Below are positions 11,985 through 38,605 of a stretch of DNA of 64,000 bases, one piece after another. How positions within the stretch are numbered: position 1 is the first letter of the stretch; each line of letters starts with the position of its first letter. The translations under genes were made by a program, and so were the position numbers. The stretch comes from Candidatus Nomurabacteria bacterium. Its GTDB lineage: Bacteria; Patescibacteriota; Minisyncoccia; Phycocordibacterales; UBA918. Below the pieces are notes generated by a model. That model made no database searches and had not been told where the DNA came from. It saw only the letters and a program-made list of their open reading frames with translations. The DNA lies in the NCBI GenBank assembly GCA_023898525.1, contig CP060227.1:893932-957931 (forward strand), given 5' to 3'.

Positions 11985-13154
11985 CTAAGACAAAGATAGA
12001 TTACCGTCTGCTTTTGCTTCTTTAGAAAAATCTTCTGGAGAAAGGGCGGATTTTTCTCTAGCGTGGCCGGAGAGAGCGATCATAATACTATTATCGGTGG
12101 ATAGGGCTGGGTCTGGTAGGTAAATGTTTAGTTCAGAAAAGTCTGTTTTTTTCTTTAAGTCTGTTATGGCTTGGCGAAGATGTTGGTTGGCAGATACACC
12201 TCCACCGACAATCAAGGACTTAACGGAATATTTTTCTATCGCTTGGGTTACTTTTTTTATCAGTACTTCTATTACCGCATCCTCAAAATCCCTGGCTAAA
12301 GCTTTCTTATTATCGTCTGTTAGTTCTCTGTCCTTAGTAGCGTAAAGTACAGCGGTCTTTAGACCAGAAAAAGAAAAATCCAAATCACCAGAATGAAGCA
12401 TCGGTCTTGGTAGGTCGGTAAACGGTGGTAGTTGTTCCTTGTGGGCTTCTTCGGCTAAACGACTGATGATCGGTCCGCCTGGGTAATCTAGTCCGAGTAG
12501 GCGAGCGACTTTGTCAAAAGCTTCACCGACCGCATCATCTCGAGTCTGCCCGATTTTTTCGTATTGACCCCAGTCTTGCATAAGGACGAGTTCGGTGTGT
12601 CCTCCTGACACTAGAAGAGATAGGCTAGGGAAGGTTAAAGGAGCTATTTTGTGTCCATCAAAAACTGAAGCTAAGATGTGTCCCTCCATATGGTCGACTG
12701 GTACCACAGGTGTATTCCATATATAAGCTAGAGCTTTAGCAAAATTAATACCAACCCAAAGTGCAGGCTCAAGTCCTGGGCCAGTCGTGACCGCGATAAG
12801 ATCAATTGGTGGTCGACCGTAAGAATTATAAAAGGTGATTACTTGGTCGGCTAAGCCATGTTCGCGCGAGAGTAAAGTATGGATGTGGTCTTTTTGATCT
12901 TCAGTTAAAGCGGGAGAAAAATTACTTTCAAGCTTAGCCTCCTTTAAGGCCTTCTCTAACATTGGTAACACGGTAGCGATGTGCTCGCGCTTAGCGAGGG
13001 CAGGGAAGACACCACCGTACTCACGGTGGGTGTCTATTTGGGAAAAGAGGGCATCGCCTAAAACTTCGTATTTAGAATTAGGAAAATCACCAACCGCTTC
13101 GATAATACTGACAGCGGTTTCATCACAGCTGGTTTCGATGGATAGGATTAGCAT
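11985..13154 (-). CDS. tsaD: tRNA N6-adenosine threonylcarbamoyltransferase TsaD (Kae1/Gcp family)
   Basis: MLILSIETSCDETAVSII N-terminus, metal-binding His region (HMEGHIL) and GGVSAN motif; longer than typical (389 aa) because of internal insertions. Confidence 0.85.
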   Translation of the reverse strand: MLILSIETSCDETAVSIIEAVGDFPNSKYEVLGDALFSQIDTHREYGGVFPALAKREHIATVLPMLEKALKEAKLESNFSPALTEDQKDHIHTLLSREHGLADQVITFYNSYGRPPIDLIAVTTGPGLEPALWVGINFAKALAYIWNTPVVPVDHMEGHILASVFDGHKIAPLTFPSLSLLVSGGHTELVLMQDWGQYEKIGQTRDDAVGEAFDKVARLLGLDYPGGPIISRLAEEAHKEQLPPFTDLPRPMLHSGDLDFSFSGLKTAVLYATKDRELTDDNKKALARDFEDAVIEVLIKKVTQAIEKYSVKSLIVGGGVSANQHLRQAITDLKKKTDFSELNIYLPDPALSTDNSIMIALSGHAREKSALSPEDFSKEAKADGNLSLS

Positions 13155-13311
13155 GAAGGTGTCCGATACAGGACTTGAACATTACATGTTCAGTACAGGT
13201 TGTCGATATTTTGGTCCAGGTATTCCCAAAATATCTGACTAACCTTTTCAAGTCCTGGGGCCAAAAGTAAAACTTTTCCTGGTAAAAAACCAGGAAATCT
13301 TTCACTTTGTG

Positions 13312-13384
13312 TCCGATACAGGACTTGAACCTGTGACCTCTACAATGTCAATGTAGCGCTCTACCAGCTGAGCTAACCGGACTT
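13312..13384 (-). tRNA. tRNA-Val (anticodon GAC)
   Basis: Reverse complement GTCCGGTTAGCTCAGCTGGTAGAGCGCTACATTGACATTGTAGAGGTCACAGGTTCAAGTCCTGTATCGGACA forms a cloverleaf with anticodon loop TTGACAT. Confidence 0.85.
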
Positions 13385-13468
13385 ATGTTGGAGATGAGTA
13401 TAACTTATTTGTGTTTATTTTAAAATAGTAAAGGCACCCTGTTGGGCGCCTTGTGGTTTTTGTTTTGT

Positions 13469-13678
13469 TTATTTTGGTATTCCTACGAAATATGTAGTAT
13501 CTTTATGTTCTATTGTTTTTATAGGAATCAAATCTGTTTCTGTTTTGGAAACTCTGATTTTTACATTATTCTCTGGTCCATTTAAATTAAAGTCCAAAAA
13601 AGTTACTTCATTAAAGTTACCCGCTTCTATAGAAGTAGTAATTCTGCTTTCCAGTTCTGTTGTTATGGTTATATGCAT
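13469..13678 (-). CDS. Hypothetical protein
   Basis: 69-aa ORF only. Confidence 0.2.
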   Translation of the reverse strand: MHITITTELESRITTSIEAGNFNEVTFLDFNLNGPENNVKIRVSKTETDLIPIKTIEHKDTTYFVGIPK

Positions 13679-13739
13679 TTCTATATCCTATTAAATCTCT
13701 CGCCAATGTAACACAGATATTTGATTTTGTAAAATAAGA

Positions 13740-14441
13740 TTATTTATTTTTTTCAAAATATTCAACAAATTTCTCGTAAGTCTCGTCATACAGTCTCCAG
13801 TCTTCATCAATTAGCTTCTCTTTTTCTTCGTCGTTTATACGAGACAAGTCTTTAGCTCTACCGTAATCGATTACTCTAGGTTCCCCAGTTTCTTTGTCTA
13901 TCATAATATTGCGTGCATATAAATCTGTATGAGCTATTTGATCAGTGGTGTGCATATGATCCAAAAAATCAGCTAAGTCGGAGAAAAAAGAATTAAGCGA
14001 AAAATTATCAGGAAGAGATTCTCTTCCGTTTATTACATGCTGCATGTTAACAGCACTTAATTCTTCCATTACTATGGCGTTTTTTTCTTCTCGTGATTCT
14101 GCAACAAAAACACTAAAAACGTAAGGTGATCTAGTCAATCCGTCATATTTAGTTCGTGACATTTTGTTTTGAAGATCAGACTCTTCTTTTGGTTCGTTAC
14201 CTAAGTCAAAAAGGTGTCTTTGTGGATGGTTATGCCTCTCGTCTAGTATTTTAATGCATAACCCGCCAGGAAGATGGTAGAGTTTCCCAACCCCGCCTTC
14301 ATCGATATAAAAGCGCTCTTGTTCATAAGATAATATTCTCTTTATACCTTCTTTTACAGCTTCAGCTGTTTCAGGATCAAGAGATTCCACTTTCTCTTTT
14401 AAATTAGGTTCAGCTGTGATAGATAAGTTTTCAAAACTCAT
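13740..14441 (-). CDS. Protein kinase-like / aminoglycoside-phosphotransferase-fold protein
   Basis: Catalytic-loop-like HTDLYARNIMID followed by IDYG (DFG-equivalent), consistent with an APH/eukaryotic-like kinase fold. Confidence 0.45.
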   Translation of the reverse strand: MSFENLSITAEPNLKEKVESLDPETAEAVKEGIKRILSYEQERFYIDEGGVGKLYHLPGGLCIKILDERHNHPQRHLFDLGNEPKEESDLQNKMSRTKYDGLTRSPYVFSVFVAESREEKNAIVMEELSAVNMQHVINGRESLPDNFSLNSFFSDLADFLDHMHTTDQIAHTDLYARNIMIDKETGEPRVIDYGRAKDLSRINDEEKEKLIDEDWRLYDETYEKFVEYFEKNK

Positions 14442-14479
14442 ATTGTTTACATATTATCATTTACCGTTACTATAATAAA

Positions 14480-15052
14480 GTGATGACAATTCTCTATCCC
14501 ACCGAAACCCTGTACGCCCTTGGGGTTAATGCTTTTGATCCGGCGGCTTTGGCGGCTTTGTATGAGATTAAGGAGAGGGAGGAGGGTAAAGCGGTGAGTG
14601 TGTTGGTGCGAAGTGTGGAGGACGTGGAGCGGTTTGCGCATATGCCGCCAAAAGCGAAGCTTTTGGCGGCTAAGTTCTTGCCTGGTCCGTTGACTTTGGT
14701 CCTTAAGGCGCGGGACGAAGTCCCGCGCCACCTCCTGGCTCCTGATGGTACTCTAGGTTTTCGTGTTTCTTCTGATGAGGTAGCAAAGCAAGTGATTAAT
14801 GATTTTATGAGTAAGTATGATGCTCCACTTACTTGCACCAGTGCCAATGTTAGCGGTTTTCCGACCTTGTCTACACCAAAAGAAATTTTAGAGCAATTAG
14901 GTGATAAGGCAGATTTGATTGATGAGATACATGATGGGGGCCCGCGAGTGGGAGCTGGCTCAACAGTGATCCGAGTGCTTGATGATAAAGTAGAAATTTT
15001 ACGCCTCGGGGCTGTTCCAGAGTCTGCTATAAAATCAGTCTTGCGGCAATAA
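14480..15052 (+). CDS. tsaC: L-threonylcarbamoyladenylate synthase (TsaC/YrdC domain)
   Basis: YrdC-type signatures PTETLYALG, LPGPLTLVLKAR, TSANVSG..P. Confidence 0.8.
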   Translation: MMTILYPTETLYALGVNAFDPAALAALYEIKEREEGKAVSVLVRSVEDVERFAHMPPKAKLLAAKFLPGPLTLVLKARDEVPRHLLAPDGTLGFRVSSDEVAKQVINDFMSKYDAPLTCTSANVSGFPTLSTPKEILEQLGDKADLIDEIHDGGPRVGAGSTVIRVLDDKVEILRLGAVPESAIKSVLRQ

Positions 15053-15264
15053 TGTTGGGGCTAAAGACCGGTTTCCAAAAGCGGTGAATTACTGATTTAT
15101 TGTAGAAAATAATATGCTAGCATTAATACATAGTTTTTATTCAAACTAATAATATTTATATAATTTCAATATGGATAAAATTTCGTTTAAAACAGCAGTT
15201 GTTGGTTTTGTAGTTTTAGCGTTTGTTTTTACTCTTGGTTACTACTGGGGTACGATAAACTAGA

Positions 15265-15321
15265 TTTAAAAAATATAAAAACAGCCGCCCTATTTTGGCG
15301 GCTGTTTTTATATTTTTTAAA
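15265..15321. terminator. Bidirectional terminator, a perfect palindrome with 25-bp arms
   Basis: tttaaaaaatataaaaacagccgcc-ctattttg-ggcggctgtttttatattttttaaa; it overlaps the stop codon of the downstream minus-strand gene. Confidence 0.7.
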
Positions 15322-15868
15322 TCTGCACAGTAAAGGGGATGCGGGTAAATTCTCTGGTATTCATGTTGGTGGTTCCAACTAATACAGAGATATAGGGAAT
15401 TAATTCAGGAACCTGTTCTTTTATTGTTTCGAGTGAAAACTCTGCTAATGATATAGCCTTTTCTGCAGCTAAGCGACTTTCCATACCAACGTTATCACGA
15501 TAAGCAGCTGAAGTCATAAGGAGAACGCCGTCTTTAGCTTCAATCCTGCCTAGTTTTATATTATCTAATAGTATACCAGCCGCTTTTTCAATTGGGTCTT
15601 TCAGATTGTAGCTATATGGTCCAATGATTAGGGCTTTGTTGTGAAAATGCAGCCAATCAAAACCTCTTCCGACGGCTAATACAAATTCTTTGTGATTTAT
15701 TTCAGTGATGGGCCTACTTTGTTCGCGGATTTCTTTTATGTGTTTGGCGTTACCAGCTAGAAGTGGTAAAAGATCACTGACTATTTCTGGTGACATATCT
15801 GGGAATAGGGTGTTTATTCTGTTTCGAATATCATTTGAGCCAGCCTCCGTCATTTCTGACATATCCAT
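15317..15868 (-). CDS. Hypothetical protein
   Basis: 183-aa ORF; no confident family assignment. Confidence 0.35.
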   Translation of the reverse strand: MDMSEMTEAGSNDIRNRINTLFPDMSPEIVSDLLPLLAGNAKHIKEIREQSRPITEINHKEFVLAVGRGFDWLHFHNKALIIGPYSYNLKDPIEKAAGILLDNIKLGRIEAKDGVLLMTSAAYRDNVGMESRLAAEKAISLAEFSLETIKEQVPELIPYISVLVGTTNMNTREFTRIPFTVQI

Positions 15869-15904
15869 TATTTCTCCATTTTCACCATGAATGATCAGGG
15901 TATC

Positions 15905-16468
15905 TTAGTCTGTTTCAATACCAACTAATATCGGATAGACAACTGAGTGGTGTAGACCAAACACTCTTTCAAACTGTTCTTTTAACTTCTTGGTTTCACT
16001 AAGGGCCAGGTCACAGTTATAACCGAAGCCTTTACAGCCAAGATGTTCATCGCTCTTTGAGTAGTGGTAGGTGGTAAGAACGATACTTTTTTTACCCTGA
16101 GATACCGCATAATCCACCCAGTCTTTCATGACTTGTCCAAAAAAGGGCCAACCAAGATCAAATTGACCACCTAAATTACGAAACGGTTGGATGATACCGA
16201 GCGGGGTTTTGGTTATGATTGGTAAGTGTAGTCTACCGTCCATACACTTCAAGACGGCTATTTCTGTTGGGTGTTTGGCACGGTATAGTCGACGTTCCAA
16301 GACGATGTCTGGGTTAGAGAAATTATCGCTACGTTTTTTATTGTGTTCCAAAAGCAAGTTTATCAGATTTTCATTTTGCATAAGTAAATATAATATTTTT
16401 ACAACAGTATAGTATGGCATAAGGATAGATAAAATTCTATGTGTTCCTTCCTTGTTCGTTATACTCAC
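15905..16468 (-). CDS. Beta-class carbonic anhydrase-like protein (tentative)
   Basis: CxDxR motif (KCMDGRL) and HxxC motif (HLGCKG) about 60 aa apart, as in beta-CA zinc ligands. Confidence 0.35.
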   Translation of the reverse strand: MSITNKEGTHRILSILMPYYTVVKILYLLMQNENLINLLLEHNKKRSDNFSNPDIVLERRLYRAKHPTEIAVLKCMDGRLHLPIITKTPLGIIQPFRNLGGQFDLGWPFFGQVMKDWVDYAVSQGKKSIVLTTYHYSKSDEHLGCKGFGYNCDLALSETKKLKEQFERVFGLHHSVVYPILVGIETD

Positions 16469-21669: not shown

Positions 21670-24600
21670 GTGCCCACCCTCCACCACCTCCTCCAAACCA
21701 CCCTCACCTTCCTCTTCACCCTCACCCTCTCTTTTGTCAGTGTATACATCCCTCAACCATACCACCAAGTCAACCACGCCGAAGCCGGAGTCGCCACCTT
21801 CAGTGGTCAGTTGATGGGTCTGGCCGAACAAGCCGTCAGTGCCGCCGCCAACGTGATGTCAGCGGCTATTGAGTCGGTCATCAGATTCAAGGAACTAGTC
21901 TGGGACCCCTTAGCCTGGAGTGTGGCCAAGGGCATGATCGCTGTCATGACTGCCAGTGTGGTCAGGTGGATCAACTCCGGTTTCCAAGGTTCCCCCGCCT
22001 TTGTCCAAGACCTGGAATACTACCTCTCCCGGGTTGGAGACCGAGTCTTTGGTGAATTCGTCAACGAACTCGGTATCGCCCCCTTTGTCTGCCGCCCCTT
22101 TAGACTTGACCTCCAAATCGCCCTCAACATCGGCTACCAAAGACACTACCGCGCCGGTTACCCAATTGGCGCCACCTACTGCAGCCTCGAAGGTGCTCTT
22201 GCCAACATCGACAACTTTGTTAACGGTAGCTTCAATGACGGTGGTTGGGACACTTGGTACACTGTCACCACCAGACCCAACACCTATACCCCCTATGGTA
22301 ACTTCCTCTCCGTCAGTGGTGAAGCGGCTCTCAGAATCAACAACCAACAAGTTAACGCCACCCGTTTCCTAAACTTCGGTGACGGTTTCATGTCCAAAGC
22401 CATCTGTTCCCAAATCCCCCTCATCACCGGCGGAGCGATCACCAGAGAACGTTGTGCTGTCTCCACTCCGGGACAAGTCATCAACCAAACTCTTAACCAC
22501 CACCTTGGGGCCGGTCTCGACAGTCTCATTGCCGCTGATGAGATCGGTGAGATCATTGGAGCTCTGGTGGGCCAACTGGCACAAAAGTCCCTGGAAGGCG
22601 CGGCCGGACTCCTTGGTCTCTCCGGTGGCACCGGCTACACCGACCCTAGCTACGGTACCTCCTACCTGGATGCTGCTATTACCCAGCAAGCCGCTAGCTC
22701 CTCTGAAGCGGTGGCCCAAGCTGACCAACTCTCCAACAACACCTACAACCAAGCCGCCAACCAAGCCGAACAACAAGGACAACAAAGAGCTGATAATGCA
22801 CAGGCGGGAGCGGATAGTACGACGAATACTGGTATTGATACTACTAATATAGACCAAGCTCTCCAGAATTTGATTGATATTCTTGGTGGGGGTGGTACCA
22901 TAATCACCCCAACTGACCCTAACACCACCACCCCACCAATTGGTCTTAGTGGTCCAATTGGACCGCAACCCGTCGCCGCTACTCCACTTTCCAGTGGTAC
23001 CATCTTCGCTGCCCCTAACGGTTCTGGTACCGCTTGTACCGAAGTGATACCGTGTACCATCCAAACCGCGATTGATAAAGCTAGAGCCGGGGATGTGGTG
23101 TTCTTATTTGGAGGAACGTATCAAGTATCTAAAAATATCGACTTCAACAACCAAGGTACCGCTGCTAATCCAGTGATCTATGAGAGTTATCCGGGGGAGA
23201 AGGCGGTGTTTGATGGGAGTACTTCACCTCAATCAAGTTGGGCTCAGATGCGCATCAGTGGTAATTTTATCTACATAAGAGGAATGGTTATTAGGGAGAT
23301 GCCGAAAAAAGGTTTAGAAGTCCTTGGAGCTGACAATCTAATTGAAGGTATGGAGGTTTATAACAATACTCTATCAGGTATTCAAATACAGGCTGGGGAT
23401 GGAGCTGGTACCACAGTAGCGTCACGAAACATCATTCGCAACAATATTGTTCGAGACAATTCAGCTGCTGGTTTGTTCGAGGCTGTATACAACGATGGTG
23501 GTAATACAGATGGTATTGCTATTAGTTATGGTTATGATAATAGAATAGAAAACAATCTGGTGTACAGGAACTCTGATGATGGTATAGACACATGGCGAGG
23601 TGTTCGAAGTTATGTAGGGTATAACATTTCTTACTCAAACGGCATAGCTAAGGGCGAAGGTAATGGTGTCAAAGCTGGCGGATCTTCTCCAAGTAAAGAT
23701 ACGGTAGTAGAGCGCAACTTGGTATATTCAAACAAGAGCAACGGTATTAATTATAATTCTGGAGTAAACGTAACAATGTCATACAACACCACATGGAATA
23801 ACGGATTAGTGGGTTACAAGGTTGGTTCAGATACTATTCTTACTAAGAATATTTCGTCTGGTGGAGTTGAGAAGAATGGTGCTGGTATCGAAAGCAACAA
23901 CTCCTGGCAACGCTCCGGTACCGTCCAGTTCATCAGTACCGACCCTAACTCACCTGACTTCTTAAGACCGACAGTTGGAGGAGGATTTGAGGATATTGGA
24001 GTATATGCTGGGACCACTGCAGTTAGTCCTAGTCAACCTTCTACTGTGCCGGTGGACGTGTATCTAATCGGTGATTCCACTGTGTCTAGTGGTTCAGGTT
24101 GGGGTGATTTCCTTAAGGATTACTTACGAACTGAGGCAACTGTAATTAACGCGGCAATTAGTGGCAGAAGTAGCAAGTCTTACTACGATGAGGGTAGTTT
24201 CAACTCAGTTCGTAGCTCTCTAGCCCCTGGTGATTATTTACTAATCCAATTTGGACATAATGATCAGCATCTTGATGATATTCATTACACAAATCCAGGC
24301 ACTGCACCGGCATACAACGGAACTTTTCGTGATTATCTCGAACTTTATATAAATGAGGCCCGTGCCAAAGGTGCAATACCGGTTTTAATTACTCCCGTCA
24401 GTCGCATGGTTTTTACCTCAACCGATCAACATATTCGATCACATGGAGAATACGCTCCAGCTGTTCGTAAGATTGCGGCTGATAACAATGTGATCCTTTT
24501 GGATCTAGAAGAACGTAGTCACCAGGTGTTCAATAATTTAGGAGAAACTCAAACATTACAACTATATGCCGGTTATGGTGGTACTTTTGATGACAGAACC

Positions 24601-28111: not shown

Positions 28112-28679
28112 CCCTTACTTACAAGGTATCTGAAGAATTTAAACGAGATAAGTCTCAATTGGTGAACCATACCGCGCCACATCTCGAACTTTTGATACAA
28201 AACCGAATGATAGTTCAAAGAAAATATTCAAGTTGATACATGACAAAGAACCACCAGACAGGTCAGAACCAAAAGCGGCATAACCAAACTTTTTCATATC
28301 TATTATGTTATCAAGTTGAGTCTAATGTGATAAGAGGAGAAAAAAGTTGTTTCTGGTATAATTTAGATGGGCTAACGCTCATTTACTATTAATTTCATGT
28401 ATATGATATTCATAGAAAAATTTGAGCTAGTTCCTACAATATTCGGCTAGTCATCCACAAAAGTGTGGAATTTGATCATTGCTAATCAGTGAGCAAGAGA
28501 TCGTACACCATACTCTGACTTTTTTGTCTAGCGGTGAGTATGATACGACCGGGGCTAGAGCATGACGAATATCGTGATGTGGGAAGATGTATCATGTTGC
28601 ATAAGCCCAAAAAGCAGTATACGGAATACTGCGGAACATAGCTCCTAAAAACCACCATAAGGTGGTTTTTAGTTTCTGG

Positions 28680-28922: not shown

Positions 28923-29310
28923 AAGGGTAGGGAAGTTTTTAAAATACTTAAGTTGTGGTCATGCACTGCACATAAGTTATTGACTTTTATATTCAATCAG
29001 TGGTATATTATTGATACAAATTGACATTAGTCATCAATCCCTCCCTCAAAAGGGAAAGGGTTAAAAAATAAGAGCTCCCGTTGGGGAGTTTTTATTTTAG
29101 GTAATCCAATAAATCTCGTTTTATATTTGTAAACTCCCTTCCTCCTACTCTACCCATTAACTTAGTAATTCTATTGGCGTCCCATAACCTCATTTGCGTC
29201 AGCATGGCACATTGTTTGTTCCCTTTAAAAACAAAATGATGATAGTGTTTATTGTTTTTAATTTGAGTGGTTAAAGGTACTCCCCAAAATAAGCGGGTGT
29301 TAAATTCCAT

Positions 29311-29865
29311 CTTTACCCCGCATGCTTGTCATCGGGGGAAACACTGTCATACTAAACAGTAATGAAAGGTAAACCACAACATATCAAAAAACCACACAAC
29401 AAAACTCTGTTCATCTATCATCTGGTATGCCCAGTAAAATACAGAAGAGATGTATTTACACCACCAATATCAAAAACATTTAAAAACTTATGTTTGGAAT
29501 TTGGTCCAGCTTACGAGATATACTTTCTTGAAATAGGAATAGACGAAGATCATGTACACTTTTTAATACAAACAATTCCAAACATACGTTTCTCTGATAC
29601 GGTAAAGAAAATAAAAAGCATCACCTCCAATCATCTCTTTAAAATCCACCCTGAACTAAAAATAAAACTCTGGGGAGGAAAGTTCTGGACTGAAGGTTAT
29701 TATGCAAATACAGTGGGTAATGCCAGTATGGATATTATTACCAATTACGTTAAAAACCAAGGTTATCCCGAATACCAACAGCTACACTCCGCACCAGTTC
29801 AGACTTCACTGTTTACTACCTAGTCCAACGCCGATACCCCGCATGCTTGTCATCGGGGTAGTTCA
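29311..29865 (+). mobile_element. IS200/IS605-family (IS200-like, tnpA-only) insertion sequence with subterminal hairpins
   Basis: The same imperfect palindrome ccccgcatgcttgtcatcgggg occurs at both ends (29315-29338 and 29837-29858). The internal gene is a Y1 HUH transposase. Confidence 0.6.
29362..29823 (+). CDS. tnpA: IS200-like Y1 (HUH) transposase TnpA
   Basis: YHLVCPVKYRR, HVHFLIQ (HxH) and WGGKFWTEGYYANTVG signatures. Confidence 0.8.
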   Translation: MKGKPQHIKKPHNKTLFIYHLVCPVKYRRDVFTPPISKTFKNLCLEFGPAYEIYFLEIGIDEDHVHFLIQTIPNIRFSDTVKKIKSITSNHLFKIHPELKIKLWGGKFWTEGYYANTVGNASMDIITNYVKNQGYPEYQQLHSAPVQTSLFTT

Positions 29866-30060
29866 TTTTTTTACAACCAACACCGGACGATTAAATACAC
29901 CACCTTTTCCATTTTCTTCATGACCGACATTTACTCCTAAACTACACCACCATATATCACGCTCTTTGAAAGTTCTGTGGCTGGTTTTTGCATCTAATTT
30001 AGTTTTTATAATGTTCCACTTTTTGAAGTCCTTCATCCATATAGCATAAATAAAAGACAT
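29863..30060 (-). pseudogene. MazF/PemK-like mRNA-interferase toxin, C-terminally truncated by the IS200-like insertion
   Basis: ERDIWWCSLGVNVGHEENGKGGVFNRPVLVV matches the PemK/MazF N-terminal motif; the ORF stops at the IS end. Confidence 0.5.
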
Positions 30061-30499
30061 TAAAAGTCAAAGGTTTATTTCAATAGTTCGATTCCCGGTA
30101 GGGTTCAACCATTATTTTCAGTTGCTGCAACTTTTATACCCATAACCCAAAACACAACATCGCCCTTAAAATAAGGGCAATGTTGTGTTTTGGGTGACAA
30201 TTTGCACTGGTGGCAAGTTATCTAGTCGTTGTGAACCATACCGAGCCACATCTCGAACTTTTGTTGCAAAATCCAGTAATAGCTCGAAAAAGATATTTAA
30301 ACTTATACATGACAAGGAACCAGCTGGTAATGAATAGGAGAAACAAACTACTTAACACTATTTATGAATCTTTATACATACTCTCAAAAAATGTATAACC
30401 TGGATAGGATGGAGAAGATGCATCAATGGTAATTTCCATCACAACCTCATCGTCCTCTTGACTGCTATATTGTGTATGCTTTGATATACTGATGGTCGT

Positions 30500-31321
30500 A
30501 TGTCTATCTCCCTTACATCAACTGAAAAAGAAGTTATCTATCTTGTCGCAGTGATTGAATCTATTGATTCAGTGGTTAACAATGTTATTTTTGAACTTAT
30601 TGGAGATGATACTCAGTCACAAATCTTGTTTCGTGACGAAAATGCACAACGCTTGTTTAATATATATCTCGTAGACTTCCTGTCTACCACTGATAAACAT
30701 AAACATGCACCTGTTCCAAGAAAGTCTTATCTAAAAGCACTCCATGAAATTACTGAAAACCCAACTTTTTCGAATGACATGATTAAAAATCTTAAACTCT
30801 CCGTCAATTCGTTTAAAGAATGGTTGGATGCAGAGGTGTCCGTTAAAGTCTATTTTCCTTCAATTAATTATGATGGTGAGATACGATTATCTAGATCGTT
30901 ATTTATTAAAATGTGTGGAAATTTATCTAAACACAATATTCTGCGATCAGTGGGTATCGCGATAGATATTATGGATGTTTTAGAGAAGGAAGGTGTTCAG
31001 ATTACAAAGGAAGAATCAATGTTTGTATTGAATGAATTCTATGAGTGGTTTCATGACGATATCCTCAACTATCACGGAACCACAATCGTAGAATTTCTCA
31101 ACAATATTCGTTGGGATATTTACGAATACTTAAAGACTGAGCATCAAGGTAGTATTACTTGGGACTATAATTCTGACCCCAAGAGATATGCATACAACAT
31201 CCCACCAGGAATAGAAAGTGATTTTGGAAAAAAGTGGTATTGGAGTCTTATGAACAAGGTTAAACATCCACCGCACATTAGACAATTCATAGCAACGGAA
31301 TTTTCAAAAAATGGATTTTGA
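30500..31321 (+). CDS. Hypothetical protein that flanks the island on the left
   Basis: 273-aa ORF; no recognisable domain. Confidence 0.3.
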   Translation: MSISLTSTEKEVIYLVAVIESIDSVVNNVIFELIGDDTQSQILFRDENAQRLFNIYLVDFLSTTDKHKHAPVPRKSYLKALHEITENPTFSNDMIKNLKLSVNSFKEWLDAEVSVKVYFPSINYDGEIRLSRSLFIKMCGNLSKHNILRSVGIAIDIMDVLEKEGVQITKEESMFVLNEFYEWFHDDILNYHGTTIVEFLNNIRWDIYEYLKTEHQGSITWDYNSDPKRYAYNIPPGIESDFGKKWYWSLMNKVKHPPHIRQFIATEFSKNGF

Positions 31322-31510
31322 CATACTAATCAAATGTATAAAAACACTACTCCCTTTACTTTACTGACTCAATCAAGTCTGAATTAGAGTCATATGACTG
31401 GTTCGATTCCCCTTAAGGTATGAAATTTTGAATCAAAATTTGCACTTTTGGTAATCAAAATATGGCTTATTTTAATGTTGGATGGATAGAAATGTTACCA
31501 AAAATAACAT

Positions 31511-31754
31511 TCCTCTCTATGTGATGTATTAGCGCACCGCGCTCTAACTCACTACATCGCGAAGCGGTGAACCAACAACGCGCGGAGCGCGTGGTGATGC
31601 GGACGTGAAGCGTACGCATTCGGGAACCTCTGCGCGCCTCGCTGCCTCGCTCCACTCGGCCCCCAAAACCAAAGAAATTTCCTTACAATCATTTTTTCGG
31701 TGGAGGGGTCTGGGGAGGAGCCGACATAAAAAGGAAAGGATATTTCTTTGGTTT
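31511..31754. repeat. GC-rich long inverted repeat, copy A (about 244 bp), the left boundary of the R-M module
   Basis: Exact reverse complement of 36601-36845 on base-by-base comparison. Confidence 0.9.
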
Positions 31755-32100
31755 GGGATCGCCGCTTCGTCCTCCAAAAAGCTCCGTTTCAGTCTCCATT
31801 TATTTGAGAGTCTTCCACTTCGCTTTTCTCCGTACTCGCGGCGTGCGAGGCGCGCTCCCGTAGCGTACCCGCGTGGTAATTCTAGCGTTCGCTCACCACA
31901 CTCTAGCACCTCCGCACTGCTCGCTCGCTTCGCTCGCGCGAGCTGCTGCGGTGCTTCCGTGTGTGAGCTTGGTGGCTTCGGTTGGGTTCGTGGTTTTCAA
32001 AGTGGTTTGCGCTGACGCGCAAGCAAGTCTGTATGTGCTTGTCCCACCCTCCCAATACGCGCACAAACAACCCCGCCTAGCGTCGGGGTTGTTGCTCCCT

Positions 32101-33720
32101 CTAATTCTTTTTTAGGATTTTTTCCTTTCCGACCAAGTTTAGGATTTTCGGGGAAGCGTCTTTTAGAGAAATCAATGTCAATTTCTTTTTCGCCCGTGTT
32201 ATCCCGACTAAAAATTCACATATTTTATGATCAGTAAACTTCTTGGTGTCCTTATCTAAAATATGTTCATCATCTATTCCTACATAATACACAAAATCCG
32301 CAGAGAGTCCCTTGGAGCTCGTAACAGTAGTTAGCTCAACTTCTATAGCGTCTTTTTTATTTGACTCAAAACCTCTGACAATCTTTGTCAGGATATTTTT
32401 TAGATTAAAAATTTTACTAAATCGTTCTAACTCTGTCTTGCTCAGTTCTTTTTTGCCAGTTTTAACCTTTTTGAAAATATTGATATCTTCTTCTATTTTT
32501 CCTTTTATGCCATCATCTAGACAATTCCATATTTTCTTTTGTTTCTCATTACTTTCATTTATAACCTCCTTCCTTTTTGTCTCATCTAAATACAAGGGTA
32601 AAATCTTCCTAAGAGCCAAATTATCAGTCTTCCTTTTTAGAAGAATTTCGAATACTTCACATAGCTTCCTGTGTTTAATTTTATTTCGCTCCTCGTTAGA
32701 AAACAATTCAACACCAACAACGGTAAATCCTTTTTTCATCAAACCCTCATATACAGTTTGTTTTAGATATGATGGCGTTAAAATCAGTACTCTCTGTTTA
32801 TCTTTGTACTCCTCAAGATCTTCTTCAATCATTTTTGACAATCTGTACGCAAGTTGATTTCCGATTACCGAGGGTACAAAAGTTATTTGTGCATATTTCT
32901 TACTTTCTTCATCTTTGTGTCCCTCTGGATACAAGAACTCCTTTTCCAGTCTTTCGTCCAAACATCCATTTGTTTTTGCATTCCGTATCAAATCATTAGT
33001 AGTCTCTATGATAACTTTTGGACATCTATAACAATAATCCAGCGAAAATCCTTCAGTGTCACCGTCGTTGTATAAACTTCTTATTTGAGATGGCTTTGCC
33101 TGTTTAAAATGGTACAGAGACTGGTCGTCATCACCAACTAAGATCACAGTACTCTGTTTGTTGAGAAATTTTATCAGCTCATACTCCGATTTATTGAAGT
33201 CTTGGAATTCATCAACTAAAATCAGATCGTACGTTGGTATCTTTGACTCATTTTGTTGAAAAAGAAGATTTGCAGCGTAAACAACTGAATTAAATGAATA
33301 TAATTTTCCGTTTGAGCTGTAGAATTCCTTTCTCTGTTTGTAGAACTCTTTTTCGTTATCAGTCAAATCGTTATCATGAAACTTTTTCTCGTAGTTAATT
33401 TTACTGCCGTGAATAAAAGAGTAGTCTTCACTTATATACTTGTCTAAATCCTCATCTAAATCACAATCTTCTTCTTTGACGAGTATGCTTCTGGCGAAAG
33501 CATGTAATGTTGAGACATCAACGTTGGGAAAATCGTTAAACTCCTCAGATAAATCATCAATAAGTTTATTTATAAAAGATAATATAAGTATTTTCTTACC
33601 TTTATATTCCTCTGATTTAATTATAGTCCCAAATGTAAAACTTTTACCGGTTCCAGGTCCAGCTAATCCGACAAACAACTTTTTATCTGACTGTTTTATT
33701 TTTTCTAGAATATCAGTCAT
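32101..33720 (-). CDS. UvrD/Rep-like superfamily-1 helicase
   Basis: Walker A GLAGPGTGKS, Walker B/motif II LILVDEFQD, motif III VGDDDQSLY, and a C-terminal UvrD_C-like region. Confidence 0.7.
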   Translation of the reverse strand: MTDILEKIKQSDKKLFVGLAGPGTGKSFTFGTIIKSEEYKGKKILILSFINKLIDDLSEEFNDFPNVDVSTLHAFARSILVKEEDCDLDEDLDKYISEDYSFIHGSKINYEKKFHDNDLTDNEKEFYKQRKEFYSSNGKLYSFNSVVYAANLLFQQNESKIPTYDLILVDEFQDFNKSEYELIKFLNKQSTVILVGDDDQSLYHFKQAKPSQIRSLYNDGDTEGFSLDYCYRCPKVIIETTNDLIRNAKTNGCLDERLEKEFLYPEGHKDEESKKYAQITFVPSVIGNQLAYRLSKMIEEDLEEYKDKQRVLILTPSYLKQTVYEGLMKKGFTVVGVELFSNEERNKIKHRKLCEVFEILLKRKTDNLALRKILPLYLDETKRKEVINESNEKQKKIWNCLDDGIKGKIEEDINIFKKVKTGKKELSKTELERFSKIFNLKNILTKIVRGFESNKKDAIEVELTTVTSSKGLSADFVYYVGIDDEHILDKDTKKFTDHKICEFLVGITRAKKKLTLISLKDASPKILNLVGKEKILKKN

Positions 33721-33724
33721 GGAT

Positions 33725-34471
33725 TTATTTCTGAAACACGAACAAATGTTCGTGCATTATTAGCAAGAAATTGCTTTCTTTTGATTTGTTAACCCAAAAA
33801 CCAGTCGCTTTGCAGTTGTATTGTCGCTTGATGATGTCTTCCTTGAGATCAAAACCAGCGTTTAGAAAGCGATCCATAACACGATATGCAAGCGGTTGAT
33901 ACATTTTTTGTCGACGGGTGTCACCAATCAGAATCGCACAAAATTTTCCTGGTTTTAAGACGCGGTACAGTTCTTTTGCAACCTTTTCCATTTCGTCGGC
34001 AAATTCTTCAATTCCGTGGATGTTTGAAAGATCTTCGTTAATTTCTCCTTCACTGTATTTGATTATGTCAGCGTAGGGCGGGTGTGTGAGAATAAAATCA
34101 ATGCTCTCATTCTCGGCTTTGACGAGGTTGCGCGCGTCACGTTTTGCCACTTTTTGCCAAGCTTTGTTCTCAACGGGAAACTTCAAACTTTCTTTCGTTC
34201 GCTCCAAGGCAACATCGTTTACATCTGAACAAATGATATTGCGGTTGAGTATTTTTGCTTCAATCGCTGTCGTACCACCACCAATCATTGGATCAAGCAA
34301 AATATCACCCTCGTTGGAGTAACGGAGAATAAGATTGCGCGCGACTTCTGGTGACCAGTTGCCGCGCCAGTCTGACTTATGCGTTGCCCAATTCCCGCGA
34401 CGAGGAAAAGCCCACACCGTCGTGCATTCAAGATCAAATTCATCGGGGTGTAGTTTCATTTCCTTTGCCAT
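33725..34471 (-). CDS. Beta-class N6-adenine/N4-cytosine DNA methyltransferase (DpnA / M2.DpnII-like)
   Basis: Motif order is SAM-binding DPMIGGGTT and then the catalytic THPPY (DPPY-like), as in PF01555 methyltransferases. Confidence 0.75.
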   Translation of the reverse strand: MAKEMKLHPDEFDLECTTVWAFPRRGNWATHKSDWRGNWSPEVARNLILRYSNEGDILLDPMIGGGTTAIEAKILNRNIICSDVNDVALERTKESLKFPVENKAWQKVAKRDARNLVKAENESIDFILTHPPYADIIKYSEGEINEDLSNIHGIEEFADEMEKVAKELYRVLKPGKFCAILIGDTRRQKMYQPLAYRVMDRFLNAGFDLKEDIIKRQYNCKATGFWVNKSKESNFLLIMHEHLFVFQK

Positions 34472-34475
34472 TGTT

Positions 34476-35336
34476 TTACCAAGTTAGTTCATTGAGTACG
34501 TCGTCCTCAAGCATTTTGAGATTAAAAACTTGACCTTTGTTGTGTTCAAAAGTTTCTTCAAGTGGTCGCTTTGTGGTTTCCCAGCCGAGTCCGTCTGTAA
34601 CCCAAACAAAATCAATATCTTGTTTTGTTAGCTCGTCATATAAACTACGGAATTCGCCACACACCGCCTTTAGTTTTGAGCCACCTCCGTTATAGAAGTT
34701 TGTCTCAAACAATTTTAGTTTTTTGGTCTGTGGATTGTATACAGCGAAATCAAAGCTTCGTTCTGATTTATCGACATTTATTTCGTAGCTCCATTTGGCT
34801 TTGATGTCGGTTGCTCGTGCTTGGGCGATGTATTCAAAGCCACGTTTTTCTGAAAAATCTTTGACGTACGATTCCACAATTTCTTCCATGAGTGTTCCTC
34901 CACGGTTTTTTCGTCCGTTGCTATCCAACCCAACCTCGACTCCCATAACATAATCGACAAGATTTTTGATTCCATCTTTTTGGAAAAGGCGAGCAAGCCC
35001 AGATTTTTCGATAAACTCGAAATACTTTTCGGCACCATCTTCTCCGTTGGAGAAATCGAAAAACTCCGAATCTTTGGTGACCTTATCAAAAATCTCAAGT
35101 TTGTTTTCGCGTACTGCTAACAAGACAGGCAACGCTTTTACAATATCAGGATTTGATTCGTAGAGCTTTGCAAATTCTTCCGTTAGATTTTCCTTGCCGA
35201 GCAAGTAATTGAGTTTGTTTAGGGAAATCTCAAGATCAGTGGCGTTTGTGGTAACTTTGTCCCAATTTACAAAATAATCCCATGTTTTTATGGAGCTTTT
35301 GAAACCGTCCACCAGTTCTGTAAATGTTTTGTTCAT
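34476..35336 (-). CDS. DpnII/MboI-family type II restriction endonuclease (GATC-type)
   Basis: Blocks LNYLLGK, IKNLVDYVMGVEVGLDSNGRKNRGG, ETNFYNGGGSKL and FVWVTDGLGW are as I remember them from the DpnII family; the length is 286 aa. Confidence 0.65.
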   Translation of the reverse strand: MNKTFTELVDGFKSSIKTWDYFVNWDKVTTNATDLEISLNKLNYLLGKENLTEEFAKLYESNPDIVKALPVLLAVRENKLEIFDKVTKDSEFFDFSNGEDGAEKYFEFIEKSGLARLFQKDGIKNLVDYVMGVEVGLDSNGRKNRGGTLMEEIVESYVKDFSEKRGFEYIAQARATDIKAKWSYEINVDKSERSFDFAVYNPQTKKLKLFETNFYNGGGSKLKAVCGEFRSLYDELTKQDIDFVWVTDGLGWETTKRPLEETFEHNKGQVFNLKMLEDDVLNELTW

Positions 35337-35341
35337 ATCAT

Positions 35342-36298
35342 TCAGTAATTAGTTACTAATACCTCGCTAATCTTTCCGCGCTTTGCGGCGTTTGAGTTTA
35401 TTGCACGTCCTGCAGCGACTTTCGACACTTTTACGCCTTTGATTCCCGAGTAGAGTTTGTTAATGAAAGGAGTGTCAGAGTTAGAAAGCATGACGTAACA
35501 ACCGCGTTTGTGTAATTCGAAAAATGTATCTCTCAATTCCGCTTGCTCCTTGTCCAAGAATGAATCTGCAGTGTACGAAGTGAAAGACGCCGTCTTGCTC
35601 ACGGGATAGTATGGCGGATCAAAATATACAAAGTCTTCTTTCTTTGCTTTTTTAAGTACCGCTTTGTAGTCTTGGTTTTTAACGGTGACTTTTTGCAATG
35701 CTTTTGACACTTTGCGCAAGTTTTCCTCGTCGCAAATTATAGGGTTTGTATATTTACCAAACGGTACATTGAAACCGCCTTTGCTGTTGACTCGGTACAT
35801 TCCATTGAAACAAGTTCGGTTTAGGAAAATAAAACGTGACGCAACATCAATATCTGACAATGCTTTTGGATCCCTTGCGCGCACTTCAAGGTAATACTCT
35901 TTTTCGTATTTGTGTTTTTTGAGAGATTTAATCAGTGCATCAACGTCATTTTTAATGACGTTATAGGTTACTACAAGTTCGTTGTTTAGATCTGAAAGTT
36001 CTGCTTTTTTTGGGAGAAGATCGAAAAAGACAGCACCTCCACCAACAAACGGTTCAAAGTAAGTATTTGTGACAGGATCAAAATCATCTGGTGGGTATAA
36101 CCCCATATCGCGGAATTGTTGGAGGAGTTGTCTTTTCCCACCAACCCATTTCACAAACGGCTTCGGCTTCTCATTAACAATTCGAGTAGCGTCCTCAAAC
36201 AATCGTGTTTTGTCTGCATTATGGAAAACATGATGCGCGTAGATTTTGTTGATATTTAACTCATGTGCGAGTTTTGTGATTGTTTGTTGCGTAGTCAT
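35342..36298 (-). CDS. Dam-like (alpha-class, D12) N6-adenine DNA methyltransferase (DpnM-like)
   Basis: VKWVGGKRQLL, FEPFVGGGAVFF and DPPYYP motifs. Confidence 0.8.
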   Translation of the reverse strand: MTTQQTITKLAHELNINKIYAHHVFHNADKTRLFEDATRIVNEKPKPFVKWVGGKRQLLQQFRDMGLYPPDDFDPVTNTYFEPFVGGGAVFFDLLPKKAELSDLNNELVVTYNVIKNDVDALIKSLKKHKYEKEYYLEVRARDPKALSDIDVASRFIFLNRTCFNGMYRVNSKGGFNVPFGKYTNPIICDEENLRKVSKALQKVTVKNQDYKAVLKKAKKEDFVYFDPPYYPVSKTASFTSYTADSFLDKEQAELRDTFFELHKRGCYVMLSNSDTPFINKLYSGIKGVKVSKVAAGRAINSNAAKRGKISEVLVTNY

Positions 36299-36302
36299 AA
36301 CT

Positions 36303-36506
36303 TTATTTTAGCAGTTCTGTGGTGCTAACTCCGAGTACCTTAGCTAGTTTGGAAATTGTCTCAAGGGTGGGGTTTGTTTTTCCGTTTTCGATATTGCTGA
36401 CATAACTGCGACTACAACCCATACCGCGCATAACATCACCTTGAGACATCCTTTTCGCTTCGCGAATCCTTTTCAAATTATTGCCGAGTTTTGTGGAATC
36501 ATTCAT
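36303..36506 (-). CDS. XRE-family HTH regulator, probably the controller (C) protein of the R-M operon
   Basis: 67 aa; LKRIREAKRMSQGDVMRGMGCSRSYVSNIENG is a classic XRE HTH. It is the first gene of the co-oriented cluster. Confidence 0.65.
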   Translation of the reverse strand: MNDSTKLGNNLKRIREAKRMSQGDVMRGMGCSRSYVSNIENGKTNPTLETISKLAKVLGVSTTELLK

Positions 36507-36600
36507 TCACACAATTATACCCAACTCTTACATTATACACGACTATTATATTTTAGTATAATAGGGTAATGGTGGAGAAAATGATTTTTAGGGACTCATT

Positions 36601-36845
36601 GCGGCGATCCCAAACCAAAGAAATATCCTTTCCTTTTTATGTCGGCTCCTCCCCAGACCCCTCCACCGAAAAAATGATTGTAAGGAAATTTCTTTGGTTT
36701 TGGGGGCCGAGTGGAGCGAGGCAGCGAGGCGCGCAGAGGTTCCCGAATGCGTACGCTTCACGTCCGCATCACCACGCGCTCCGCGCGTTGTTGGTTCACC
36801 GCTTCGCGATGTAGTGAGTTAGAGCGCGGTGCGCTAATACATCAC
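36601..36845. repeat. GC-rich long inverted repeat, copy A' (the partner of 31511-31754)
   Basis: See copy A. Confidence 0.9.
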
Positions 36846-36954
36846 CAATCGAAACAAACTCGGGAGCAAGGCCGCCTGCGGCGGCTATGGGGGCAATATG
36901 GCGGCGGCGTGCCGCCGCGCCCTGGGCAAAAGCAGCCTTTGTTTCTGCCACGCA
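36842..36954. repeat. GC-rich inverted repeat, copy B (about 113 bp), immediately upstream of the recombinase start
   Basis: Exact reverse complement of 38424-38536. Confidence 0.9.
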
Positions 36955-36986
36955 CTGCGTAATCCCAAAGTGAAACCCAGTACATT

Positions 36987-38594
36987 ATGAAAGAACTCAA
37001 ACCAAAATATGTTCTCTACGCTCGCAAGAGTACGGAAGATGATGATAAACAAGTAATGAGTATTGAAGCTCAGTTAGTTGAGTTGCATGAGTTTGCGCGT
37101 AGAGAACAACTTGAAATCCTATCGGAGTTTCAAGAGTCAAAAAGCGCAAAGACGCCCGGGCGTGAGACGTTTGGTGAGATGATGGCGTTTATTGAAAATC
37201 ATAACGAGCCACTTGGTATTCTCGCGTGGCACCCCGATCGTCTCGCTCGCAATTCGATAGACGGTGGGCGTATCGTGTATGCAGTGGACACAGGGAGTAT
37301 CGCGTCTTTGCGCTTTCCGACCTTTTGGTTTGAGCCAACGCCGCAAGGAAAGTTCATGTTGCAAGTGGCGTTCGGTCAGTCGAAATATTTTTCGGATAAC
37401 TTAGTAGAAAACGTGAAGCGTGGAATGCGCCAAAAACTTCGCCGTGGTGAATGGTTGACCAAAGCCCCGTTTGGGTATGTGAACAATCCAAAGACTCGCA
37501 ATATCGAACCGCATCCTGTGTATTCAAAGATTGTGGTGCGGGGCTTTGAAGAATATGCCAAAGGCACATACACCATAGAATCATTGGCGAAGTTTTTGGC
37601 TGACCTCGGTTTGGAAACCAAGAACCGAACACCACTTGGCAAAGCTTCCATTGTGCGGATGCTTTCTAACCGAGCGTATATCGGATTTATCAAATACAAA
37701 GATGAATGGCACGAAGGAAGCTTTGCGCCGATTATCACTCCCACACTGTTTGAAGCAGTCCAAAAGGTGCTCGAAACAAAACGGCGGCCTCGGGTACAGA
37801 AAGAACCACATAATTTTCCACTCACGCAGTTTGCCGAGTGCGGTGAGTGTGGCGGCATGATAACTGCTCAGTACACTACTAACAGGCATGGTACGAAGTA
37901 TGCGTATTATCGCTGTACTCAAAAGAAAGGATCATGCCGCCAACCGTACGTGGCCACCGCTTTGTTGGAGACACAAGTGAATGACATGCTTCAAACAGTT
38001 GCACTGCCGTCAGTGGAGATAGACAAGATTGATGGGTGGATTGTACGCTGGGAGCGTGAACAAACCGCTGATGACGGCAGTGCTGCCCGAGACCTTAAAA
38101 ATGAGATTGCGAGCGTGCAAGAGAAGCTTGATCGCTTAGTTTCTCTGTACCTTGATGGCGATATAGAGCGCGATAGTTATCTCGACCGCAAAGACAAGCT
38201 GATGCGCGAAAAAACGACGCTCGCTGAGAAATTGAATGGTCTCGGGCGTGGGAGTGATAATCGGCTCCAACCCTTGCGGCGTTTCGTTTTGTCTTTAAGA
38301 GAAGCCGTGAATTTGATAGAGAGCGGTGAGATGCACGAAAAACGTGACTTTCTGAAAAAGCTCGGCTCTAACCCTTCTCTTAAAGACAAAACACTTTCAT
38401 TGCACTGGGATGCACTTTGGGATGGCGTGGCAGAAACAAAGGCTGCTTTTGCCCAGGGCGCGGCGGCACGCCGCCGCCATATTGCCCCCATAGCCGCCGC
38501 AGGCGGCCTTGCTCCCGAGTTTGTTTCGATTGGTGACCCTACGGGGAATCGAACCCCGATTTGCAGGATGAGAACCTGCTGTCCTAGCCGTTAG
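36987..38594 (+). CDS. Large serine recombinase (resolvase domain + recombinase domain + zinc ribbon + coiled coil). The C-terminal ~55 aa are encoded by repeat B' and the tRNA-Glu 3' region and are probably not native
   Basis: N-terminal YARKSTEDDD..S (catalytic Ser region), Cys-rich CGECGG...YYRC zinc ribbon, then a coiled-coil. The tail is Ala/Gly/Arg-rich and comes from GC-rich repeat DNA. Confidence 0.8.
   Translation: MKELKPKYVLYARKSTEDDDKQVMSIEAQLVELHEFARREQLEILSEFQESKSAKTPGRETFGEMMAFIENHNEPLGILAWHPDRLARNSIDGGRIVYAVDTGSIASLRFPTFWFEPTPQGKFMLQVAFGQSKYFSDNLVENVKRGMRQKLRRGEWLTKAPFGYVNNPKTRNIEPHPVYSKIVVRGFEEYAKGTYTIESLAKFLADLGLETKNRTPLGKASIVRMLSNRAYIGFIKYKDEWHEGSFAPIITPTLFEAVQKVLETKRRPRVQKEPHNFPLTQFAECGECGGMITAQYTTNRHGTKYAYYRCTQKKGSCRQPYVATALLETQVNDMLQTVALPSVEIDKIDGWIVRWEREQTADDGSAARDLKNEIASVQEKLDRLVSLYLDGDIERDSYLDRKDKLMREKTTLAEKLNGLGRGSDNRLQPLRRFVLSLREAVNLIESGEMHEKRDFLKKLGSNPSLKDKTLSLHWDALWDGVAETKAAFAQGAAARRRHIAPIAAAGGLAPEFVSIGDPTGNRTPICRMRTCCPSR
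38424..38536. repeat. GC-rich inverted repeat, copy B' (the partner of 36842-36954)
   Basis: See copy B; it ends within the CCA end of tRNA-Glu. Confidence 0.9.
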
Positions 38595-38605
38595 ACGATA
38601 GGGCC
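38531..38605 (-). tRNA. tRNA-Glu (anticodon CTC) with an encoded CCA
   Basis: Reverse complement GGCCCTATCGTCTAACGGCTAGGACAGCAGGTTCTCATCCTGCAAATCGGGGTTCGATTCCCCGTAGGGTCACCA forms a cloverleaf with anticodon loop TTCTCAT. Confidence 0.8.

Follow-up and report, generated by a model that had tools for sequence, protein, structure and literature searches.

Why is a UvrD-like DNA helicase encoded as the last gene of a DpnII/MboI-type restriction-modification (R-M) operon, and is it part of the R-M system or an independent lodger? The question is raised by a 64,000-nt stretch of the genome of a Candidatus Nomurabacteria bacterium (contig CP060227.1, positions 893,932 to 957,931), referred to below as the window. 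Five head-to-tail open reading frames (ORFs) occupy positions 32101-36506 of its minus strand, separated by gaps of 4, 5, 4, and 4 nt, and the cassette that they form is the cargo of a 7,016-bp large-serine-recombinase element (31521-38536) lodged in the 3' end of a tRNA-Glu gene. A first-pass annotation, made from the letters alone, described a DpnII-type system with an unusual gene order and a dedicated helicase. We propose instead that the helicase is probably a modular accessory, housed in a variable 3' slot of a conserved four-gene cassette, and not an R-M subunit. The R-M system belongs to a known kind; neither the helicase family appended to it nor the element, with its internal inverted attachment site, appears to have been described before. 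The features of the operon are given in the order of its genes, preceded by a candidate operator:

36543-36564, no strand: putative C-box operator CTATTATA-N6-TATAATAG, lying upstream of the XRE gene; the sister locus L173 keeps both half-sites and has a different spacer
36303-36506, minus strand: XRE/HTH_3 controller-like protein, 67 aa, first gene of the operon (Pfam HTH_3, 8e-19; PADLOC Control_protein, 1.6e-13)
35342-36298, minus strand: Dam-family (D12 class) N6-adenine methyltransferase, 318 aa (MethyltransfD12 PF02086, 7.6e-66; NCBIfam TIGR00571)
34476-35336, minus strand: DpnII/MboI-family type II restriction endonuclease, 286 aa (PF04556, 1.9e-91; PADLOC REase_II, 4.6e-96)
33725-34471, minus strand: second methyltransferase, N6_N4 family, 248 aa (N6_N4_Mtase PF01555, 6e-26; PADLOC MTase_II PDLC03376, 8e-90, full length)
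32101-33720, minus strand: compact UvrD-like superfamily 1A (SF1A) helicase, 539 aa, fifth gene of the operon (UvrD-helicase, 5e-22, with AAA_19 and UvrD_C)

The family-assignment scores for these genes lie far above chance. The match of the endonuclease to the DpnII profile spans positions 2-278 of 278 (277/278), the first methyltransferase scores 300 bits (1.4e-89) against the NCBIfam "dam" model TIGR00571, for which the cutoff is 115, and PADLOC types the three enzymes as type II methyltransferase, endonuclease, and methyltransferase, in each case through a full-length match. By family membership, the locus is a DpnII/MboI-type three-enzyme R-M cassette plus an XRE controller. It has in common with DpnII of Streptococcus pneumoniae, MboI, and LlaDCHI a DpnII-family endonuclease and two methyltransferases, one Dam-like and the other of the N6_N4 family, and it differs from them in adding the XRE controller gene and the appended helicase gene. 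The helicase does lie directly downstream of the second methyltransferase, in the same orientation and across a 4-nt gap, as the first-pass annotation had it, and on the strength of that spacing it is very probably cotranscribed with the R-M genes.

The same annotation was right that the gene order departs from that of the pneumococcal locus, dpnM-dpnA-dpnB (PMC4471560). With C, M, and R standing for controller, methyltransferase, and restriction endonuclease, the pneumococcal order is M-M-R, whereas that of the window is C-M-R-M. The latter is not unusual, however, once closer relatives are considered. More than 100 database clusters contain endonucleases at 75-92% identity, nearly all of them unnamed or from bacteria of the candidate phyla radiation (CPR), and we compared eight such clusters, 77-92% identical to the window endonuclease. 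All eight have the order M-R-M, with Dam (318-320 aa), DpnII (285-286 aa), and N6_N4 (248-254 aa) proteins following one another. The block is contiguous in seven of the eight, the remaining locus (L189/190) having a gene for an AAA_15/21 ATPase between Dam and DpnII, and gene lengths and spacing match those of the window in most. A small XRE/HTH_3 gene (67-74 aa) heads the cassette in six of the eight; an HTH_17 gene takes its place in L176-179, and L189 has none at its head. Judged from these relatives, the R-M core is ordinary and M-R-M is the norm for the CPR version of the cassette. The MboI system, mboA-mboB-mboC, is also said to have the order M-R-M.

It is the fifth position that varies among these sister cassettes, as the following comparison shows (percentages are identities to the window endonuclease):

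Window: SF1 helicase, 539 aa
L169-172 (92%): PDC-S46, 732 aa (PADLOC, 2.5e-229)
L173 (91%): GmrSD/HEC-06, 561 aa
L183-185 (90%): DUF87/HerA-like ATPase, 666 aa
L174/175 (85%): no fifth gene
L186-188 (78%): relative of PDC-S46, 720 aa, 41% identical
L176-179 (78%): HTH_17-SF2 helicase, the SF2 helicase being of 678 aa
L189/190 (77%): none at the 3' end, with the AAA_15/21 ATPase between Dam and DpnII

The exchange was traced at the DNA level in L169. Its DNA is 86.6% identical to that of the window from position 36791 down to exactly 33724, does not align across the fifth gene, and resumes at 89.4% identity over 32065-31575 (blastn); the helicase gene is precisely replaced by PDC-S46, with sharp breakpoints. 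A GC-rich noncoding spacer, which in the window reaches from the left (P) arm of the mobile element to the helicase 3' end (31766-32100, no strand; hairpin at ~32068-32095), is kept in L169 (89% nt), where it lies downstream of the different fifth gene. The reciprocal case is L003, which has in common with the window only the helicase ORF (75% nt, 77% aa), the recombinase, and the tRNA; it carries other R-M genes, and its helicase is followed by a gene for Shedu SduA (1.4e-109). PDC-S46 and HEC-06/GmrSD, both PADLOC defense candidates, thus share with the helicase their position after the same four-gene cassette; the proteins themselves are unrelated to it, and PADLOC includes no model specific to its family. 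The description of the helicase as dedicated to this R-M system is accordingly not supported: a sister cassette 87% identical to that of the window holds another gene precisely in its place, and the helicase family travels with many unrelated defense systems.

Judged by its motifs and its predicted structure, the helicase gene is intact and its product is a member of the SF1A (UvrD-like) superfamily. It has all SF1 motifs and the 1A/1B/2A/2B fold (AlphaFold2 model, mean predicted local distance difference test score 90), and the Walker A GPGTGK, DEFQD, GDDDQSLY, and R509 of VGITRAK are invariant in an alignment with 38 homologues. In a family census, 1,711 of 8,000 scored candidates passed as helicase-family proteins (threshold, E <= 1e-5). 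The closest 100 homologues are ~540 aa long and come from CPR bacteria, Bacteroidota, and DPANN archaea, and relatives sharing 45-77% identity with the helicase are dispersed among the same three groups in differing contexts. The family is nearly absent from IMG/VR viral contigs, and a phage origin, which we also considered, was rejected on the grounds that IMG/VR yielded one full-length distant relative only.

Across 80 species-level genome loci, the neighbors of the helicase family are highly variable and rich in defense genes. We tallied 59 immediate same-strand neighbors, among which components of type I and type IIG R-M systems are the commonest families. Examples of the arrangements are listed below (HEL, helicase):

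L011 and L014: HsdM-HsdS-HEL-HsdR, with overlapping stop and start codons
L010: HsdM-HEL-...-HsdS-HsdR
L017, L026, L028, and L087: arrangements like the preceding ones
L009: AbiLi-AbiLii-HEL-Cas4-like PD-(D/E)XK
L052: HEL-PD-(D/E)XK
L006: AbiH-HEL-...-SNase
L012: SMODS-SLATT, then HEL
L015: HTH-Fic, then HEL
L072: a distant family member adjoining another DpnII system

One of these loci is itself an island. In L014, ~12 kb at a tRNA-Lys gene (3996-16022) are bounded by a different serine recombinase (23% identical) and by direct repeats of the tRNA 3' half, with the cargo HsdM-HsdS-helicase-HsdR-PD-(D/E)XK; the recombinase ORF there likewise reads antisense into its tRNA.

Several other explanations of the helicase have to be weighed against a modular accessory. 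It could be a true subunit, making the system an ATP-dependent, translocating variant of the DpnII type. The 4-nt gap between genes in the same orientation does suggest translational coupling, almost all sister cassettes have a large nucleoside triphosphatase (NTPase) adjoining or inside the cassette, and the family members within type I R-M operons have the overlapping stop and start codons noted above. However, the closest cassettes, with endonucleases 85-92% identical, do without the helicase, and L174/175 does without any fifth gene; the fifth gene alone is replaced, at sharp breakpoints; much the same helicase accompanies a different R-M pair in L003; and family members also stand beside AbiH, SMODS/SLATT, and Fic genes, none of which is an R-M component. 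Besides, DpnII-family enzymes are known to work without any motor. We therefore regard a subunit role as improbable.

As improbable, in our estimate, is that the helicase serves the mobile element, for instance in replication or processing of an excised circle, a service that PcrA-type helicases perform for some integrative elements and plasmids. The two close copies, those of the window and L003, are carried at tRNA-Glu by elements whose recombinases belong to one family, a further family member lies in the tRNA-Lys island of L014, and tRNA-associated elements of the tycheposon type often carry helicases. Against this, the 17 other related elements for which the cargo was delimited all lack the helicase, few of the 80 helicase loci have a serine-recombinase-like ORF within 5 kb, and in the window the gene ends the R-M operon rather than accompanying the recombinase, with no Rep or relaxase gene present.

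A less credible idea is that the helicase moderates or alleviates restriction, by dealing with lagging methylation or with repair of self-inflicted cuts, and so stabilizes a selfish R-M cassette. UvrD-type helicases act in repair, and R-M operons repeatedly contain members of the family, but such a role would not explain why the helicase family is linked to AbiH, Shedu, AbiL, and SMODS/SLATT loci or why the helicase is exchanged, in the same slot, for overtly offensive genes such as GmrSD.

Fainter again is the suggestion of the first-pass annotation that the helicase is an orphan GajB, the helicase of a Gabija system that has lost its GajA nuclease. Like GajB, it is a small UvrD-like helicase found in defense contexts; its best PADLOC matches are GajB models (7.8e-28, 95 bits), and the family member in L009 follows an AAA_21 ATPase and an RloB/AbiLii-like gene, an arrangement reminiscent of a split OLD-type nuclease. 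Yet the scores are modest, and the GajB models are profiles that describe UvrD-like helicases in general. When the Protein Data Bank (PDB) was searched with a profile, the matches were to UvrD, PcrA, and Rep, with no GajB at E <= 1e-3, and a Foldseek search with the model placed UvrD/Rep/PcrA at a template-modeling (TM) score of ~0.72 (E 1e-26) and GajB at 0.39, in rank 35. Further, the window lacks any GajA or OLD gene, and the common neighbors of the family, usually R-M genes, do not include GajA. On this evidence, the Gabija remnant is not supported, and GajB is rejected as a specific assignment.

Finally, the helicase can be dismissed as the housekeeping PcrA, Rep, or UvrD of the organism, a possibility that the first-pass annotation had named as one that would refute it: these are its best sequence and structure matches and share all of its helicase motifs, including the Pfam UvrD-helicase domains, but they are proteins of ~650-750 aa at a conserved chromosomal locus, whereas the 539-aa protein of the window scores 70-83 bits against the NCBIfam Rep/UvrD/PcrA equivalogs (cutoffs, 911-1168), is encoded on mobile, defense-bearing DNA, and lacks conserved synteny.

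We thus return to the helicase as a modular accessory. On this understanding, the large serine recombinase would mobilize the 7,016-bp element, with the R-M operon as cargo. The operon would be transcribed from a promoter and operator at about 36510-36600, and the XRE protein would autoregulate it through the palindromic operator; a small HTH (helix-turn-helix) protein at the head of an operon, with a candidate palindrome upstream of it, would make a C-protein-like arrangement, in which the operator role is putative. A scan for promoters and terminators gave match counts no higher than in shuffled sequence. The Dam-family and N6_N4 methyltransferases would shield GATC sites of the host, and the DpnII-family endonuclease would cut unmodified GATC. 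The helicase would most likely be an autonomous ATP-driven DNA translocase that adds a second layer on top of restriction. It might do so by unwinding cut or nicked foreign DNA, so that this DNA is destroyed rather than repaired. The unwinding role is drawn by analogy, and we offer it tentatively, as a possibility that falls short of probable; it is preferred because elsewhere the helicase is paired with nucleases (Cas4-like PD-(D/E)XK, Shedu, and SNase) and because it shares its slot with other NTPase and defense genes.

The specificity assumed here is predicted from family membership, and it receives weak support from the composition of the window, in which GATC has an observed-to-expected ratio of 0.75 and is the second most depleted of the 16 4-nt palindromes. 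The second methyltransferase calls for a correction. The first-pass annotation had listed three DpnII components, of which the Dam-like methyltransferase and the DpnII endonuclease stand; its placement of the second methyltransferase in the DpnA type does not. In this protein, motif I (DPMIGGGTT, residues 60-68) comes before motif IV (HPPY, residues 130-133); residues 111-216 correspond to the N-terminal portion of canonical beta-class enzymes (27-137 of the PDB structure 2zie) and residues 39-78 to the C-terminal portion (220-259 of the same structure), and residues 45-96 pair with 178-229 of 5hek, annotated as "DpnA." Membership in PF01555 holds (92 bits), with the topology permuted relative to the beta class. 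From its motif order, then, the enzyme is circularly permuted with respect to DpnA and other beta-class enzymes, in which motif IV precedes motif I. Hence, the activity of DpnA on single-stranded DNA cannot be assumed for it.

Several observations weigh against the picture just drawn. Nearly all alternative occupants of the slot are large NTPases, and the cassette might need a motor partner. Two elements with recombinases of one family (those of the window and L003) carry the helicase, and a role in element biology is possible. The part assigned to it after restriction is an analogy, and in the window its sole nuclease partner is the endonuclease itself. Operon status derives solely from the 4-5-nt spacing, the depletion of GATC is mild, and the specificity of the permuted methyltransferase is putative. 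We advance as a conjecture, itself somewhat doubtful, that the ~540-aa UvrD-like family is an unrecognized, exchangeable postcleavage defense motor for restriction enzymes and other defense nucleases, carried by an undescribed class of CPR elements that shuttle R-M cassettes and hot-swap their 3' accessory gene. Literature searches yielded no R-M-embedded UvrD-like helicase family, which is weak negative evidence.

The element that carries the cassette is delimited by the following features:

31521-31765, no strand: P arm, the left end of the element, starting with the core GTGA (31521-31524); a perfect 245-nt inverted copy of 36601-36845, with a homologous arm in L169
36601-36953, no strand: P'Q' block, an intact inverted attP-like site made of the inverted P copy (36601-36845) and the inverted Q copy (36842-36953)
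36987-38594, plus strand: large serine recombinase, 535 aa as read (Resolvase, Recombinase, and Zn_ribbon_recom domains; CcrB-like, 2e-27; phrog_95 integrase)
38425-38536, no strand: Q arm, the right end of the element, ending with the core GTGA (38533-38536) that abuts the tRNA; a perfect 112-nt inverted copy of 36842-36953
38531-38605, minus strand: tRNA-Glu(CTC), the integration target; the junction reads ...GGGTCA/C, and the element supplies CCA
31521 (flank-P), 36842 (P'-Q'), and 38536 (Q-tRNA): junctions with the common core TCAC/GTGA

The P' and Q' copies overlap in the core TCAC (36842-36845), and their block lies between the divergent XRE operon and recombinase gene, stopping 34 nt before the recombinase ATG. 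The catalytic R13 and S15 of the recombinase are invariant in an alignment, and its last ~56 codons cross the Q arm and then run antisense into the tRNA-Glu gene. In L001 (4378-7215, corresponding to the recombinase region of the window), the NCBI gene list of the same genome shows no recombinase gene; the ORF may have been annotated as a pseudogene owing to the tRNA overlap.

The three junctions appear to be the outcome expected when an attP site (P.Q) integrates into an attB site (tRNA.flank), save for the retained inverted attP. In the window, in L003 and L169, and in dozens of further loci, the core TCA(C) marks the 3' end of tRNA-Glu as well as either end of the element; since its fourth base varies at flank-P junctions, the crossover is placed inside TCA. 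In every locus compared, Q begins at TCAC, the last bases of the tRNA, and the conserved P' end GTTCGnGCAAAGGnTAnnATTnnnTCAC lies just outside Q'. The GTTCG of GTTCGnGCAAAGGnTAnnATTnnnTCAC and the GTTCG of the tRNA T-arm are equidistant from the core. P resembles the tRNA half-site and Q resembles the flank near the core, as would be expected for a single attP (P.Q) recombining with attB (tRNA.flank). An alternative is that the recombinase and the cargo belong to two separate transposons, each bounded by terminal inverted repeats, with palindromic circle junctions. It is disfavored: Q' lies next to the conserved P' end in all of the loci, and the mimicry of tRNA and flank by P and Q fits a single attP.

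The element family is abundant in CPR metagenomes (255 relatives confirmed in a single scan), and we surveyed 80 metagenome loci (L089-L168) with recombinases 54-67% identical to that of the window. The Q'/Q repeat is present in 70 of the 80 (median arm, 117 nt), with arms 100% identical in 33. A tRNA adjoins in 59 of the 71 loci where the recombinase 3' end lies inside the contig, and it is tRNA-Glu in 55 of those 59. Seventeen related elements have a second repeat pair around 1.5-8 kb of cargo, which consists mostly of HTH genes and type II R-M systems (EcoRI methylase, TdeIII, and MvaI/BcnI), with ThsB-TIR, PemK, DUF4411, and LexA-like genes besides. The architecture is the same in L003, with arms 85-97% identical, and in L169, where it surrounds the PDC-S46 version of the cassette. 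An assembly artifact as the source of the inverted repeats is ruled out by the divergence of the L003 arms and by recurrence in independent assemblies; the recombinase-flanking inverted repeats with an internal inverted attP are a real and general architecture. Two loci that we considered as evidence of inversion, L147 and L155, were set aside, both being explicable by assembler walks through repeats.

Some members of the family depart from this plan. In place of the whole recombinase unit, the decayed copy L173 has a nested palindrome of 44 nt between TCAC and GTGA (5454-5500), seemingly what is left of the Q arms in miniature. In L160 (1-13228) and L161, six consecutive segments each lie within inverted repeats of their own, with two recombinase genes, which suggests tandem accretion of elements. 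In the left flank of the window element, ~100 nt outside its end (31400-31419), there is an inverted copy of a tRNA-Glu T-arm/acceptor 3' fragment, GGTTCGATTCCCCTTAAGGT, and L169 has a closer one (11441-11462, 1 mismatch in 21). We rejected such a fragment as a general feature of the left flank, most other elements lacking it; besides the window and L169, it is present only weakly in L146 and at a non-tRNA junction in L161. Just outside the window element, too, lies a 273-aa ORF (30500-31321, plus strand) with no match in Pfam, NCBIfam, PADLOC, or PHROG.

Three ideas remain on what the internal inverted attP is for. It could be a res-like operator for self-regulation by the recombinase, it could support a flip like that of the yeast 2-micron plasmid, or it could be a second docking site. 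Two analogies may be drawn: the plan of two inverted repeats resembles that of the 2-micron plasmid, and the position of the site between divergent genes recalls that of res in Tn3. Like tycheposons and the staphylococcal cassette chromosome (SCC, mobilized by CcrB), the element would insert at the 3' end of a tRNA by means of a site-specific recombinase, vary in its defense cargo, and accrete in tandem; unlike these, it has its recombinase and its cargo each within long inverted repeats, with an inverted attP-like copy between them. There is no Rfam match (E <= 1) in the arms or the GC-rich spacer apart from the tRNA, RNAalifold gave no consensus structure for 25 aligned P' arms, and literature searches yielded no description of this element type, again weak negative evidence.

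Elsewhere in the window, a gene for a PemK/MazF-like toxin (29092-30060) is apparently split by insertion of an IS200-type Y1 transposase (29362-29823) into an N-terminal piece (29863-30060) and a C-terminal piece (29092-29310); the PemK match is weak and is made by the C-terminal piece only (E 8e-4). The insertion lies between identical 24-nt direct repeats (29314-29337 and 29835-29858), and a 92-nt direct repeat, 83% identical (28162-28253 and 30231-30322), flanks the region of the IS200 and toxin. At 22001-23000, the local GC fraction is 0.54, against about 0.40 in the rest of the window, with no Rfam match at the gathering threshold.

The sister cassettes, nearly identical except for one 3' gene, constitute a clean natural experiment, and with them it can be asked, in matched constructs, whether the addition of an NTPase enhances type II restriction. 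The locus thereby nominates a widespread, uncharacterized helicase family for testing in defense. In serine-recombinase biology, the internal inverted attP of the carrier element is a feature that calls for explanation, and the element family, abundant in CPR metagenomes, shows the exchange of defense genes among bacteria with small genomes.

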